From IMG/VR virus record IMGVR_UViG_2802429217_000005, positions 1 to 38,049 of that record: DNA of 38,049 nucleotides, one strand, 5' to 3'. This document shows positions 17,701-22,702 of this stretch, in pieces. Within the stretch, counting starts at the first letter, position 1; the number at the start of each line of letters is the position of its first letter. The stretch comes from a virus. Taxonomy: Duplodnaviria; Heunggongvirae; Uroviricota; Caudoviricetes. The notes below the pieces were generated by a model. The model had not been told where the DNA came from, searched no databases, and saw only the letters and a program-made list of their open reading frames with translations. Both the position numbers and the translations under genes were made by a program.

Positions 17701-18126
17701 TCACAGATACTGCTCCAGTGGTAACTGAAGCGCCTGTGCAATTTTCTTGAGCTGCGCTTCTTCATCCGGACCAATGCCATCCTGATCAGCGATATCCAGA
17801 CAGAGGCAAAGCACGTCAACCGCCTCAGTTGTCCCCGCCACATCAGCCAGCTCACGTAATGCATGCGCATTCGCACTACGCGGTGACGCTTCATAACGGG
17901 CGCGGATATTGGCGCTCATCTGGGCAATCTCACCAGAGAACGGTGCAAAAGCAGGAAGCGCAGCAATGGTTTTCTCCAGTACTGCGATTTCTTTTGCGTC
18001 GCAGGTGCCGTCGGCATATGCAATGGAATATGCGCCCCAGACGGTCGCCTCCACCGCATCACGGTTCTCCATCTTCTTCACTTCAGTGATGGCCTTGCGG
18101 GTTTTCTTTTTGAAAATACCTAACAT
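17701..18126 (-). CDS. TerB-like (tellurite-resistance TerB family fold) protein
   Basis: 141-aa ORF; pattern AYADGTCDAKEIAVLEKTIAALP ... LCLCLDIADQDGIGPDEEAQLKKIAQAL resembles the TerB/DjlA N-terminal family as recalled. Confidence 0.45.
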   Translation of the reverse strand: MLGIFKKKTRKAITEVKKMENRDAVEATVWGAYSIAYADGTCDAKEIAVLEKTIAALPAFAPFSGEIAQMSANIRARYEASPRSANAHALRELADVAGTTEAVDVLCLCLDIADQDGIGPDEEAQLKKIAQALQLPLEQYL

Positions 18127-18307
18127 CGTGACTTTTCCTTTGCGTAGACGAGCCTGCGCCAGATGGTTACCAGCCCACAGTGAAAGTCACACTGACAATC
18201 CCGTAAGCACCTCCTGAAAGGCTCTGTGTTTTTGATGTGCGCCAGGTGTGGCTCAGATACAAAAAAAGCTCGCCGTAGCGAGCTAACAGAAAATATGAAG
18301 CATGTTT

Positions 18308-18586
18308 TTATCCACGAAGCATGACAATGAACTCATCCATGCCTACACGGCTGGCTATCTCGTTGTATTCCTCAACAAGAGCCAGCAATTCTGAATTAGC
18401 AGCCATGAACTCATCAAAAACCTTATGGATGGCATCACTGTTTAATAAAACAATGTTCTTTCCTGAAAGGCGATCAGGGGTAGAAAATATAACTGTTAAA
18501 CGACTAAAGGCCCTGGCTCGTTCAGCATTAACATCCTCAATACGCTGCAACAAGCTGGAGCACCTGGAAATATCATCAATATTCAC
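18308..18586 (-). CDS. hypothetical protein
   Basis: 92-aa ORF starting at a GTG with AGGAG 5 nt upstream; no family recognised. Confidence 0.4.
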   Translation of the reverse strand: MNIDDISRCSSLLQRIEDVNAERARAFSRLTVIFSTPDRLSGKNIVLLNSDAIHKVFDEFMAANSELLALVEEYNEIASRVGMDEFIVMLRG

Positions 18587-19105
18587 TCTACTCCTGCCAT
18601 CTGGATGATAATCATTTCACGGAGAGAAGCACTCAGAAGTACCACTGAAGTATAACTGGTGACCAGCTGCTTACACATCTGTTGCCATCCTGCTGATGAT
18701 AAGTCGATATTAACCCTTCTGTCTATAAACGAAACAAAGGATAAGTTCAGGTTTTAAACACACTGCCAGGATAAAGTATTGTATACAGTATAGAAGAGCG
18801 TTATTGAATGACATAAAAAACCAGACCTAATCCCTTATCCGGAATATATATCAAATAAACGGGGAAAATGTATTAAGATGGCGTTCCTATTCTCTCCATC
18901 CCTGATGTCCACGTAACTCGTTATAGAATCAGAACGCCATCTGAATACACACAAAAAAGCTGGCTTCACACCCTCCTGCATGTGTGAACGCAGTGCCCGA
19001 CCACGTGCTTTCGCAACCAGCGAAAATCAGTTTTAAATACCGAAAAACGATAAGAATATATCAGAACTTCCAAGCATCCTGCTTGGCTTAGATATTAATC
19101 GAAGA

Positions 19106-20191
19106 TTAGCTCCTGTTCTTATCTAATTGTGCATTTCGCAATTTATCGTTCAGCACCAATATTTCACCAACTGTTTGTTCAAAACGCCCGGACTCAAGTT
19201 CAACCCCAATCGTGCGACGCCCCAATCCCATTGCTGCTTTTATTGTTGCCCCCGATCCCATAAAAAAATCCGCAACCACATCCCCCGGACGACTGCTGGC
19301 AGAAATTATCTGACGCAACATATCCGCCGGTTTTTCGCAGGGATGCTTACCCGGATAATACTGTACGGGCTTATGCGTCCAGACATCCGTATAAGGAACG
19401 GCGGCCGATACAGAAAAATAACGCCGCAGAGATTTGTATTCCTCAAGCAGACTGGCATATTGCCGGTTCAGTTCACTGTATGTGCTGACCAGCAGTTGGT
19501 GTGGCGTTGCCAGCTCCCCACGCTGGTGTTTTTCTTCTGCAACACGCGCGAACAGCGCCTGCAGTTTTCTGTAATCAGCTTCGTTCGGTAACTGCCACTG
19601 ACTGGTACCAAACCAGTGCGACACCATGTTTTTCTTTCCGGTGGCTTCCGCTATCTGTTTGGACGTTATTCCCAGTGATTCACGCGCATCACGAAAGTAA
19701 AAAATCAGCGGGGCCATGACGTGTTGTTTAAGCTCGCGCTCCTTTGCCGCATAGCCGGCATTTTTTGGCTGATATGGCCCCTGATAATGTTCGGCAAACA
19801 GAATGCGCTCTGTTGCCGGGAAATACGCCCGCAGGCTTTCTTTGTTGCACCCGTTCCAGCGTCCGGACGGCTTCGCCCAGATAATGTGGTTCAGCACATT
19901 AAAGCGCTCACGCATCATGATTTCGATATCAGATGCCAGGCGATGACCACAAAACAGGTAAAGACTTCCGGCAGGCTTCAGTACCCGCCAGAACTGAGCC
20001 AGACACTGGTCCAGCCATTTCAGGTAATCATCGTCTCCCTTCCACTGGTTATCCCAGCCCTCGGGCTTCACTTTAAAATATGGCGGGTCTGTGACTATAA
20101 GATCGACAGAGTTTTCCGATAAGGTCTGGATAAATTCCAGGCAATCGGTGTTGATTAACTCACAACTGGATATTTTTACAGTATCAACCAT
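19106..20191 (-). CDS. orphan DNA methyltransferase (N6-adenine/N4-cytosine class, DPPY motif)
   Basis: 361-aa ORF with motif IV DPPY near the N-terminus (LIVTDPPYF) and the AdoMet-binding motif near the C-terminus (DFFMGSGAT); no adjacent restriction endonuclease gene recognised. Confidence 0.85.
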   Translation of the reverse strand: MVDTVKISSCELINTDCLEFIQTLSENSVDLIVTDPPYFKVKPEGWDNQWKGDDDYLKWLDQCLAQFWRVLKPAGSLYLFCGHRLASDIEIMMRERFNVLNHIIWAKPSGRWNGCNKESLRAYFPATERILFAEHYQGPYQPKNAGYAAKERELKQHVMAPLIFYFRDARESLGITSKQIAEATGKKNMVSHWFGTSQWQLPNEADYRKLQALFARVAEEKHQRGELATPHQLLVSTYSELNRQYASLLEEYKSLRRYFSVSAAVPYTDVWTHKPVQYYPGKHPCEKPADMLRQIISASSRPGDVVADFFMGSGATIKAAMGLGRRTIGVELESGRFEQTVGEILVLNDKLRNAQLDKNRS

Positions 20192-20331
20192 AGATCAATA
20201 AGCACTTCTCTGATAGGCTCATACCGCTTTTGCGCAAAGCGGATGGGCCTGAGGTTTGCTTGTGACCCCGATTCATGAGCAGATGGCTGGCAGGTGCCGC
20301 TAACACCCACCAGCCGCCCATTACCACAAAG

Positions 20332-20355
20332 TAAAAAGCCTTCACTGCGGAAGGC
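20332..20355 (-). terminator. candidate intrinsic terminator between the winged-helix gene and the methyltransferase gene
   Basis: On the minus strand: GCCUUC-CGCAGU-GAAGGC followed by UUUUU, overlapping the stop of the 65-aa ORF. Confidence 0.5.
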
Positions 20356-20539
20356 GTCTGTAACAACCGAACTGATAATCTGCCAGACCCGCCATAACAA
20401 GCTGGGTCAGTATTAACTGACAGCGTTCGCGTGAAAGGTAAGTATTCTGCGCAATTTCCCCAACTGTTGCCGGTTCAGTGACGCTTAATTCATTAAACAC
20501 CACTCTGGCTGTTTCTGTCATATCCTGCTGTTTTAGCAT
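20342..20539 (-). CDS. small putative winged-helix DNA-binding protein
   Basis: 65-aa ORF; ATVGEIAQNTYLSRERCQLILTQLVMAGL resembles a MarR-like winged-helix recognition region; family not recognised. Confidence 0.4.
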   Translation of the reverse strand: MLKQQDMTETARVVFNELSVTEPATVGEIAQNTYLSRERCQLILTQLVMAGLADYQFGCYRRLPQ

Positions 20540-21565: not shown

Positions 21566-21593
21566 GATAAAAAACCCGCTCGGTCGCGGGTTT
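21566..21593 (-). terminator. candidate tR'-type intrinsic terminator downstream of Q
   Basis: Minus-strand AAAACCCGC-GACCGA-GCGGGUUUUUUA: GC stem flanked by an A-tract and a 6-U tract. Confidence 0.6.
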
Positions 21594-21639
21594 TACTAGC
21601 TTTGCCATCACGTATAAAAACAGCAAAATATCAGATTTA

Positions 21640-21675
21640 CACGAAATATATGCGTTTTAATCTACTTTTGCAATA
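21640..21675 (-). promoter_or_regulatory. candidate late promoter pR'
   Basis: On the minus strand: -35 TTGCAA (21667-21672), 18-bp spacer, -10 TATATT (21643-21648); begins 9 nt after the Q stop and about 50-75 nt upstream of the terminator. Confidence 0.35.
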
Positions 21676-21680
21676 CTTTG

Positions 21681-22346
21681 CTATGAAAATGCCGCCTTTT
21701 GTTTTGAACGTGTTCTCTCCACTAACAATAAAGCTTCACTATCCAGCCGATGAAAAATGTGTTTCATTGCAACCCAGTGACCAGTAAATGTCTTGGACCA
21801 GTTTTTGGTTGTTACTCCCACCAGTAACGCCAGTTCCTGGTATTCATAACCTTCCCCACCAAAAAGCTCAGCTTTTACCGCCTGCGCCGCCAACCAGATC
21901 AACGTCTTCAGGCGCACCAGAGTTTTTCCTGCAATTTTTCTGGTACCGGATTGAGCATTAAATTCAGTCCACGCCCACTGCGTTATCGCGATCTTATACT
22001 CCCAGCAAATGCTACCGCTGTAACACCACAGCACCCACGCCTTCTGATGCTCTTCAAGAGACAGAACGGCGCGTCGCCATGATGATGTCGAAAACTCAAC
22101 CGGACTGACCAGGGCAATTGATGAACCTTTCGCCAGCGATTGCTTTCCCGGGATCGGTGGATTATCCAGCGTTACTATTTTTCCAGTGACCTTATCGCGG
22201 TACCGGATTTTTTTACGTCTGTAACGCCCTGTATTGAACATGGCATTCTCCTGCCAGGCTTCAAGCTGACCTTTTGTTGCTCCACTCAAATCAGCGGTGG
22301 CGATCGTGAGCTGCTCACGCACAAACTGTAAATACTGGTTATTCAT
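21681..22346 (-). CDS. putative late antiterminator Q (non-lambda Q family)
   Basis: 221 aa from the ATG at 22346, which overlaps the rusA stop; position directly after RusA and before a promoter-terminator pair matches Q; family identity is from recall only. Confidence 0.5.
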   Translation of the reverse strand: MNNQYLQFVREQLTIATADLSGATKGQLEAWQENAMFNTGRYRRKKIRYRDKVTGKIVTLDNPPIPGKQSLAKGSSIALVSPVEFSTSSWRRAVLSLEEHQKAWVLWCYSGSICWEYKIAITQWAWTEFNAQSGTRKIAGKTLVRLKTLIWLAAQAVKAELFGGEGYEYQELALLVGVTTKNWSKTFTGHWVAMKHIFHRLDSEALLLVERTRSKQKAAFS

Positions 22347-22702
22347 GCGCACTCCAGTTCTGTGATTTTTATCCCCAGCCGACCACCGGGAATAACCTGA
22401 CCGCGCATAATATTAACTTCATCAAACTGCTCATCGTCGATAAGCAGTCCCGCATGTGTCAGTGCATCCAGTGGTGCTTTCAGAATATTGTCCAGGTCAC
22501 GACGGCGCTTATCCGGCGGCTCTGCAATAATTTTTATTGCCAGCCTTCCGGACAGATTTAATTTCAGTCGCTGCTGGCGAACAATAAGCGCCACATCCCG
22601 GCGATAACGCTCCCCTGCTTTTGATACAAAATATGTGCTGCCACGACGACGCCAGTAGGTATTCACCGTCGGAGGGTAAGGCAAAACAAATTCTATCCCC
22701 AT
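22343..22702 (-). CDS. rusA: Holliday junction resolvase RusA
   Basis: 119-aa ORF with the RusA signature (LPYPPTVNTYWRRRG ... PDKRRRDLDNILKAPLDALTHAGLLIDDEQ); AGAGG Shine-Dalgarno. Confidence 0.9.
   Translation of the reverse strand: MGIEFVLPYPPTVNTYWRRRGSTYFVSKAGERYRRDVALIVRQQRLKLNLSGRLAIKIIAEPPDKRRRDLDNILKAPLDALTHAGLLIDDEQFDEVNIMRGQVIPGGRLGIKITELECA

Follow-up and report, generated by a model that had tools for sequence, protein, structure and literature searches.

An orphan adenine methyltransferase gene of the M.EcoGII family in an E. coli prophage and the conserved structured RNA that precedes it

The sequence analysed here, referred to as the window, is the whole 38,049-nucleotide stretch of viral DNA in IMG/VR record IMGVR_UViG_2802429217_000005, in which a first-pass annotation had pointed to an orphan DNA methyltransferase in the late region. 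We found that the gene concerned, at 19106..20191 on the minus strand, is a real and intact orphan beta-class N6/N4 DNA methyltransferase gene. Taking all the evidence below together, we consider it quite probable that its product is a solitary M.EcoGII-family N6-adenine methyltransferase of the beta class, which would methylate without sequence specificity and would serve in anti-restriction when expressed late, under the control of the antiterminator Q. The spacer directly 5' of the gene holds a conserved structured RNA with strong covariation, which may be a new element of the locus.

Results

The gene encodes a beta-class methyltransferase with intact catalytic motifs

The minus-strand open reading frame (ORF) at 19106..20191 begins with ATG and comprises 361 codons, with an in-frame TGA six bases 5' of the ATG. 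Its product matched Pfam PF01555 (N6_N4_Mtase) over amino acids (aa) 29-340 (E=7.3e-43; score 147 bits, cut-off 26.7), and the NCBIfam models gave sub-threshold matches only, to YhdJ-like and CcrM-like adenine methylases. Both catalytic motifs could be read directly from the sequence: motif IV, the catalytic DPPY, lies at aa 35-38 in a T-DPPY-F context (20078..20089, minus strand), and motif I, the FxGxG that binds AdoMet (S-adenosylmethionine), is present as FMGSG at aa 310-314 in an F-FMGSG-A context (19250..19264, minus strand). The first-pass annotation had described a DPPY-class methyltransferase with motif IV before motif I, which is the beta-class order, and it was right on both counts; neither motif is disrupted. 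DPPY was invariant across 30 close homologues. In twelve relatives of 37-63% identity, D35 and Y38 never varied and P36 and P37 were conserved to at least 90%; of motif I, F310 and G312 never varied and G314 was conserved to at least 90% in distant relatives of the same identity range.

Comparison with known structures led to the same class. A sequence search of the PDB returned beta-class enzymes only (M.BceJIV, M.RsrI, CcrM, M.MboIIA, M1.HpyAVI, a rotifer N4C methylase, and M.PvuII), and each match consisted of two blocks, at about aa 8-154 and 281-340, with nothing between them. In these alignments the FMGSG of the methylase coincided with motif I of M.BceJIV and M.RsrI. Foldseek, run with an AlphaFold 2 (AF2) model of the methylase, likewise returned only beta-class amino-methyltransferases from the same list, the best being CcrM, M.BceJIV, M.MboIIA, and M.RsrI (E 3e-14 to 1e-11). 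The AF2 model is of moderate confidence, with a mean pLDDT (predicted local distance difference test) of 69; it was built on a shallow alignment of 30 sequences of at least 73% identity and was used for secondary structure and core fold only. M.BceJIV (8URK/9C3U), M.RsrI (1EG2), CcrM (6PBD), and M.MboIIA (1G60) share the catalytic Rossmann core and the motif order with the methylase (their best E-values by sequence were 3e-23 to 1e-14, and Foldseek gave a probability of 1.0). They differ from it in being site-specific, in having only ~20% identity, and in having target-recognition domains (TRDs) that are 90-100 aa shorter and unrelated to the helix-turn-helix (HTH) bundle described below.

The methylase belongs to the M.EcoGII family

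A close and characterised relative is M.EcoGII, a 349-aa beta-class enzyme from a cryptic prophage of E. coli O104:H4 C227-11 (Murray et al. 2018, PMC5778455), which modifies A in any context and methylated 86% of deoxyadenosines in vivo (PMC5778455). By BLASTP, 294 of 345 aligned residues were identical between the two proteins (~85%); we took the M.EcoGII sequence from Suppl. Table S1 of the SUPREM paper (PMC11551740) by machine reading of a PDF, and a few evident reading errors make this identity approximate and a slight underestimate. By region, the N-terminal core was 94% identical to that of M.EcoGII, the central insert 78.5%, and the C-terminal core 81%. M.EcoGI, 95% identical to M.EcoGII, is likewise non-specific; M.EcoGII is described as part of 'a very large family' found in E. 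coli prophages, and phage 1720a-02 is said to encode 'a very similar MTase' (methyltransferase) (PMC5778455). Our methylase was 84% identical to the methylase of this Stx (Shiga toxin) phage and 88% identical to L24 of phiP27. It is 100% identical to RefSeq WP_047671474.1, which carries the name 'DNA-methyltransferase'. Of 5426 complete E. coli genomes, 1887 held relatives of at least ~80% nucleotide identity, frequently as several copies, and 37 records of a phage collection carried the gene, nearly all of them Stx2-converting phages in which it lies between Q and the tRNA/stx genes.

The methylase shares with M.EcoGII as well as with M.EcoGI the order of DPPY, TRD, and FxGxG, the ~85% identity over 345 aa, a four-helix TRD with an HTH, a charged linker, orphan status, and carriage by a prophage; the kinship extends to the structured leader, which also precedes the gene of the close relative in phage 1720a-02. 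It differs from M.EcoGII in length (361 versus 349 aa), in a replaced C-terminal tail, and in a TRD that is ~78% identical. As judged by homology, the gene has every feature of the M.EcoGII family that can be tested by sequence, and its ~85% identity to M.EcoGII argues for non-specific adenine methylation. It is thus an enzyme of an already known and ordinary type, the prototype of which is sold as a reagent (EcoGII methyltransferase).

The replaced tail comprises aa 345-361 (19109..19159, minus strand). Nucleotide similarity to all phage homologues ended at about gene position 1013-1022 and the protein alignment diverged after aa 344, which indicates that the 3' end of the gene contains a mosaic joint formed by recombination, past which the last 17 codons are wholly different from those of the phage homologues. 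Such a replaced 3' end could be taken as a sign that this is a decaying, non-functional prophage gene, the more so as the integrated prophage has an IS66 element beside the integrase and a frameshifted ORF in the lysis region. The reading frame is nevertheless full-length, all catalytic and dimer-interface residues are conserved, and clear purifying and covarying selection acts on both the leader and the gene. Moreover, the chromosome of E. coli ARS-C301 has a 100% identical gene, and 18 complete genomes carry the allele at 99% identity or more. We therefore regard decay as hardly tenable.

The region between the motifs is the recognition domain normal for the family

Pfam PF01555 covered 312 residues of the methylase with just 219 profile positions, and the unmatched middle is ~93-100 aa longer than in M.BceJIV or M.RsrI. 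This insert (aa ~140-260; 19412..19774, minus strand) appeared in the AF2 model and the alignments as a helical TRD with an HTH and a charged helical linker. The modelled helices span residues 147-173, 177-184, 190-194, 204-223, and 232-255 (pLDDT 60-86), with the HTH at aa 173-194 (19610-19675, minus strand), and the alignment of relatives showed a conserved SQWQLP (19586-19603, minus strand). No PDB sequence match covered the insert. When the methylase was compared by HMMER with 1.84 billion cluster representatives, 293 matched at E<=1e-30, many of them in one colinear stretch at 35-63% identity. The twelve relatives of 37-63% identity keep the same middle, with Q198 and L201 invariant in 'SQWxLP' and with repetitive charged 'EYExLRR' helices.

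The authors of SUPREM modelled M.EcoGII with AF2 as a dimer with a Rossmann core formed by residues 1-134 and 260-349 and a TRD consisting of a four-helix bundle (residues 160-237) that contains an HTH and is joined to the core by a long charged two-helix linker (PMC11551740). They proposed that the large positive surface explains non-specific binding by M.EcoGII; the charged linker is absent from M.PflMI, a structurally similar but site-specific relative (PMC11551740). The helices of our own moderate-confidence model agree with this published model, the charged linker is present in the methylase sequence, and the reported dimer-interface segments are kept, residues 116-140 being identical and residues 97-110 having one difference. 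Judged from these alignments, the long middle is the recognition and binding domain normal for the family, without a private insertion, and in the characterised M.EcoGII it accompanies the absence of sequence specificity. The first-pass annotation had remarked on an unusually long region between the motifs and had suggested a target-recognition insertion. The length (~93-100 extra residues) and the HTH-containing TRD held up, and the special insertion did not, since relatives down to ~37-45% identity are colinear through this region.

A canonical HTH would also suit a sequence-specific orphan methyltransferase, expressed from the prophage, that marks a defined motif epigenetically through the insert. 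The insert is the part most divergent from M.EcoGII (78.5%), M.PflMI shows that a structurally similar enzyme can be site-specific (PMC11551740), and the orphan methylases Dam and CcrM act as epigenetic markers. We nonetheless consider this reading unlikely: the methylase is ~85% identical to the non-specific M.EcoGII, M.EcoGI is non-specific as well, and the charged linker that M.PflMI lacks, and that was proposed to give non-specific binding, is present here. Furthermore, family members are silent in lysogen methylomes, and the gene lies behind a terminator and is without a convincing promoter of its own (see below).

As a separate observation at the boundary of linker and C-terminal core, protein P0001 (386 aa, from a single short contig) carried a tandem duplication of ~36 residues, in which YKHLRRYFGVT.QVPYTDVWTHKPVQ.YPGKHPC occurs twice; it could be real variation or an error of assembly.

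A conserved structured leader RNA abuts the methylase start codon

The spacer 5' of the methylase ATG was strikingly conserved across a sample of 80 species-representative loci encoding methylase relatives of 55-86% identity. Folding and a covariance model delimited in it a structured 5' leader RNA of ~140 nucleotides (nt) at 20192..20330 on the minus strand, which was also found at phiP27 locus L001 (5862-6003), at L003 (4862-5003), and at 60 further loci. The leader comprises a long hairpin, P1 (AUGGGC-GGCUG-GUGGGUG... and its complement), and a second domain made up of P2, P2b, P3, and P4, in which the closing helix P2 (GGUCAC/UGAUC) ends at the AUG or up to 3 nt before it, and P2b is formed by AAGC/GCUU. 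When four divergent copies were folded independently by minimum free energy, the same architecture was obtained each time (z-scores -5.2 to -1.1). The pairing takes in the region of the methylase mRNA where ribosomes load: in the copy of the window, positions -13 to -1 are paired except for a two-base bulge. There is no Shine-Dalgarno sequence at the normal distance from the methylase AUG; the sole purine-rich run, GAGAAG, lies 13-18 nt upstream.

We measured covariation in two alignments, using as controls the same structure with the pairing partners slid along the sequence. A plain MAFFT alignment of 20 sequences had 92% of its cells paired (29-42% with slid partners) and 10 pairs with compensatory changes (3-7 in the controls). 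The covariance model R1, built from this MAFFT alignment, matched 62 of the 80 species loci and matched once in the window, and all matches abut the methylase ATG on the sense strand, including those at loci that lack the upstream 65-aa gene described below. In the resulting alignment of 63 sequences, the share of paired cells was 93.8% (slid controls 27-40%), compensatory changes occurred at 25 of the 40 pairs (controls 9-12) and in 120 cells (controls 13-38), and the covariation score was 0.225 (controls 0.065 or less). Out of 500 shuffles, not one attained any of these values. Since this larger alignment was fitted to the model it leans towards the structure, and the result from MAFFT alone is the more conservative of the two. 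R1 also matched 79 of 80 IMG/VR viral contigs, again always next to the methylase ATG and in sense orientation, which added no covariation power as the relatives there were all at least 82% identical. G-U pairs were abundant, with GU in 44 of 62 sequences at one pair of P1a and in 45 of 62 at one pair of P2, which places the structure on the RNA of the methylase sense.

Two other readings of the spacer were rejected. It holds ORFs of 60 and 74 aa (20184-20366 and 20176-20400), and a coding role is contradicted by lengths that vary by 1-2 nt between species and by scattered single-base indels. A promoter inside the leader, with a TGTGAAAAT-like extended -10 element, was not supported either, as A2 of the -10 is not conserved; helix P1a starts there, and the alternation of G-U and G-C argues for transcription of the site.

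In Xenorhabdus and Photorhabdus the spacer is shorter and a P1-like hairpin is kept. The leader had no match in Rfam 15 at E<=1 with permissive filters; the one weak match in its vicinity was the sub-threshold isrJ match described below. Our literature search turned up no relevant report of an RNA motif that precedes prophage methylases. By BLAST, the 150-nt spacer was present in 2727 of 5426 complete E. coli genomes, with no annotated feature over any of the matches listed.

An alternative long-range helix is possible in this leader, because two near-invariant segments, AUGGGC and GCCCA (20305-20319 and ~20239-20243; columns 13-17 and 92-96 of alignment A4), can pair. The resulting helix, UGGGC/GCCCA, excludes P1a and P3, and RNAalifold preferred it on the large alignment. 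Its core varied in one sequence only, that of Mixta mediterraneensis, in which both sides change, G to A with C to U. This single compensatory event is a weak hint that the alternative helix is a switch or a pseudoknot. We tentatively entertain, at somewhat less than an even chance, the idea that the leader represents an undescribed class of cis-regulatory RNA, dedicated to genes of the M.EcoGII family, which could act as a conformational switch that holds back translation of the toxic enzyme until a signal arrives. Candidate signals could be the 65-aa winged helix-turn-helix (wHTH) protein encoded upstream, by analogy with Com of phage Mu, the methylase itself, processing of the P1 hairpin by RNase III, or a metabolite.

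The gene stands alone in the late operon of a lambdoid prophage

As judged from the annotation by PGAP (Prokaryotic Genome Annotation Pipeline) of an identical prophage, the window corresponds to approximately a whole E. coli lambdoid prophage, from integrase to tail genes. One strand carries, in order, genes for a DUF968 protein, RusA, Q, a 237-aa membrane protein, the 65-aa protein, the methylase, a 92-aa protein, TerB, a DUF3927 protein, two holins, and an endolysin; the DUF3927 gene and the holin genes are separated by a DUF1883 gene of opposite orientation. The Q gene is at 21681..22352 on the minus strand (PF06323 Phage_antiter_Q, E=2.7e-88; PGAP annotation of the identical prophage). 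With the methylase gene 3' of Q and 5' of the holin and endolysin genes on the same strand, its position is that of the 'moron slot' of the late operon, in agreement with the placement in the late region by the first-pass annotation. In Stx phages the homologous gene is found between Q and tRNA/stx, the classic Q-dependent slot.

The orphan status proposed in that annotation was confirmed: PGAP annotated no restriction endonuclease between the integrase and the tail genes of the identical prophage, and PADLOC gave zero matches among the six neighbouring proteins scanned. The adjacent cognate endonuclease that marks a Type II restriction-modification (R-M) system is absent from the methylase locus. 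One could still imagine the methylase as the modification half of an R-M or other defence system with an unrecognised nuclease nearby, given that the best PADLOC model for the methylase itself was 'Type II methyltransferase' and that in phiP27 a 409-aa gene of the GIY-YIG nuclease family lies beside the wHTH/methylase pair. No nuclease is annotated in the identical prophage, however, no neighbour has a PADLOC match, the GIY-YIG gene adjoins the methylase in 0 of 162 other loci, and a methylase without sequence specificity offers no way to define a site for a cognate nuclease, which makes this explanation extremely improbable. The GIY-YIG gene (L22 of phiP27, L001 4208-5437) lies between Q and the wHTH/methylase pair, where it occupies the slot of the window's 237-aa membrane protein. 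Neither the window nor any of the 162 other loci examined contains it, and it was accordingly rejected as a cognate nuclease.

The module of wHTH gene, leader, and methylase downstream of Q is shared with the Stx2e phage phiP27 and the Stx2 phage 1720a-02 and with the 'DNA methylase' of Stx2a/2c/2d prophages. The difference lies in what follows: in those phages the methylase is followed by tRNA genes and stx, whereas here it is followed by the 92-aa ORF, TerB, and DUF3927, without a toxin. We found no tRNA genes anywhere in the window and no remnants of them downstream of the methylase. The slot of tRNA/stx in Stx phages corresponds to 17701-19105 of the window, which holds a 519-bp intergenic stretch (18587-19105) and then the 92-aa ORF (PHROG 2873) and a gene for a TerB-domain protein; the intergenic stretch had no match in the phage collection.

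Putative late-transcription signals lie between Q and the methylase

Directly after the stop codon of Q, a consensus scan found a pR'-like promoter, TTGCAA-17-TATATT (21673-21645, minus strand), and ~70 nt after this promoter lies a tR'-like intrinsic terminator, a hairpin with a U run (~21594-21568, minus strand). The hairpin reads AAAACCCGC-GACCGA-GCGGGUUUU plus the U run, or AAAACCCGC-GACCGA-GCGGGUUUUUU in the longer form that includes it, and the 86-nt tR' segment folds at -21.2 kcal/mol (z=-2.7). Promoter and terminator together delimit a short putative leader just downstream of Q (21568..21673, minus strand). A further terminator-like hairpin, GCCTTCCGCAGTGAAGGC followed by TTTTTAC, came from the consensus scan and lies over the stop codon of the 65-aa gene (20338..20355, minus strand), while the same scan found no promoter-like site beyond chance 5' of the methylase. 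Because lambdoid late transcription works through a pR'/tR' layout of this kind, the methylase would be transcribed only by polymerase modified by Q.

In lysogens, M.EcoGI and M.EcoGII are transcriptionally silent, and constitutive clones of M.EcoGII grew slowly and were unstable (PMC5778455). Similarly, homologues with 92-93% similarity and predicted non-specificity gave no additional methylated motif in growing cells of O111 STEC (E. coli strains that produce Shiga toxin) (PMC6602927). The context of the present gene, behind a tR'-like terminator and with a structured leader over its start, fits such silence.

The segment 21570-21641 (minus strand) also gave a full-length, sub-threshold match to isrJ, a Salmonella Hfq-binding small RNA (sRNA) in Rfam (22 bits versus a gathering score of 37), with the 5' UGUAAAUCUGAUAU identical. 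This similarity in sequence suggests that isrJ-type sRNAs may be terminated pR' leader RNAs of lambdoid prophages. A comparable case of a terminated pR' leader RNA is StxS.

A small winged-helix gene precedes the leader at many loci

Upstream of leader and methylase, at 20342..20539 on the minus strand, lies a gene for a 65-aa small winged-helix-like protein, which had a weak Pfam match to TrmB below the cut-off (E=0.0026) and a match to PHROG 331, of unknown function (E=1e-37). It is immediately upstream of the methylase in 50 of the 80 species loci, and its product is identical in 65 of 65 and 63 of 63 aligned residues to the counterparts in phiP27 and 1720a-02, respectively. The phiP27 counterpart, L23, is thus identical even though the adjoining methylases are just 88% identical. 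We regard the wHTH protein as a candidate regulator. As 30 of the 80 loci lack it, the full leader being present at some of these, it cannot be an obligatory partner.

A conserved small gene just upstream invites the alternative that the physiological substrate is RNA (rRNA, tRNA, or phage or host mRNA), with the 65-aa protein as specificity subunit. M.EcoGII does methylate RNA in vitro, and M.EcoPA8orf6770P, a Stx-prophage methylase acting with the small partner protein PNB-2, prefers 16S rRNA (PMC10810198). That enzyme resembles the present case as a prophage methylase of STEC phages working with a small second protein, but it is of the MT-A70 family, has a DPPW motif and an RNA substrate, and is encoded at the gp5 position elsewhere in the phage; it is unrelated to the methylase gene here. 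An identity of this type was rejected for our gene, given its DPPY motif, its sole Pfam match to PF01555, and its other locus. Together with the ~90-fold faster reaction of M.EcoGII on DNA than on RNA (V0 11.1 versus 0.12; Table S3, PMC11551740) and the lack of the 65-aa gene at 30 of 80 loci that keep the methylase, these differences make an RNA substrate very unlikely.

The arrangement recalls the mom operon of phage Mu in outline. The start of mom is buried in a hairpin, and the small protein Com, encoded upstream, opens it; Mom itself is acetyltransferase-like and makes N6-carbamoylmethyl-adenine, and Com is a zinc finger. Shared are a late, toxic, and broad-spectrum anti-restriction DNA modification, a start codon in an RNA structure, and a small gene immediately upstream. 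The two systems differ in that there is no relationship in sequence or fold, in that Com is a zinc finger while the small protein here is a wHTH, and in that the wHTH is missing from 30 of 80 loci. The parallel between Mom and M.EcoGII in silence and toxicity has been drawn in the EcoSal review (PMC12707154).

At two loci, one of Kosakonia sacchari (L017 4558-4797) and one from a record titled Vagococcus sp. (L023 4558-4797), the wHTH gene is replaced by a 79-aa cysteine-rich ORF that ends ~60 nt before the leader. Its product looks like a zinc ribbon (CxxC...CPEC...CPAC) and is reminiscent of Mu Com.

Discussion

On the strength of the analogy with M.EcoGII and of the gene's position, we think that the role of the methylase is most likely the hypermethylation of progeny DNA in anti-restriction, through Q-dependent late expression. 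In the lysogen the gene would be silent, with transcripts from pR' stopping at tR'. After induction, RNA polymerase modified by Q would read through into the gene, and the enzyme, probably as a homodimer, would flip out and methylate adenines with little or no sequence preference. Progeny genomes would then be packaged with most of their adenines as N6-methyladenine (m6A) and, once in the next host, would resist the many restriction systems (Types I, II, and III) that are blocked by m6A. In return, the producing cell would suffer toxicity and the genomes would become sensitive to Type IV nucleases that depend on m6A; DNA treated with M.EcoGII is indeed cut by m6A-dependent nucleases. The leader RNA would add a further layer: it probably limits or times translation of the toxic methylase, which would make it a candidate translational gate.

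The first-pass annotation had left the choice between an anti-restriction and an epigenetic moron. The former is in line with proposals made for M.EcoGII (PMC5778455; PMC12707154), which the EcoSal review groups with Mu Mom as silent in lysogens and toxic (PMC12707154). The latter, an epigenetic role in the lysogen, is unlikely, considering that M.EcoGI and M.EcoGII are silent in the lysogen and deleterious if constitutive (PMC5778455), that no signal was seen in O111 STEC (PMC6602927), and that the gene lies behind pR'/tR'-like elements without a convincing promoter of its own.

Several points weigh against the role that we propose. Late Q-dependent expression and protection of virion DNA are presumptions for M.EcoGII itself (PMC5778455). 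The promoters and terminators found by our scan are consensus matches, and these occur at the frequency expected by chance. In addition, the recognition domain is the least conserved part of the protein (78.5% identity to M.EcoGII) and the C-terminal 17 aa are replaced; the non-specificity of this particular allele is a prediction from homology.

As for the gene itself, it is one more allele of a very common and characterised family, and the present analysis corrects the idea of a special specificity insertion. Strains with this prophage would be expected to show no methylome signal when uninduced and heavily m6A-modified phage DNA after induction. Such heavy m6A would matter for how lambdoid and Stx phages cross restriction barriers as they spread, and for how sensitive they are to m6A-dependent defence nucleases. 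The leader, which goes unannotated in about half of the complete E. coli genomes, is a candidate explanation for how a toxic enzyme is kept off and then released, and it would be a new RNA family for annotation pipelines.

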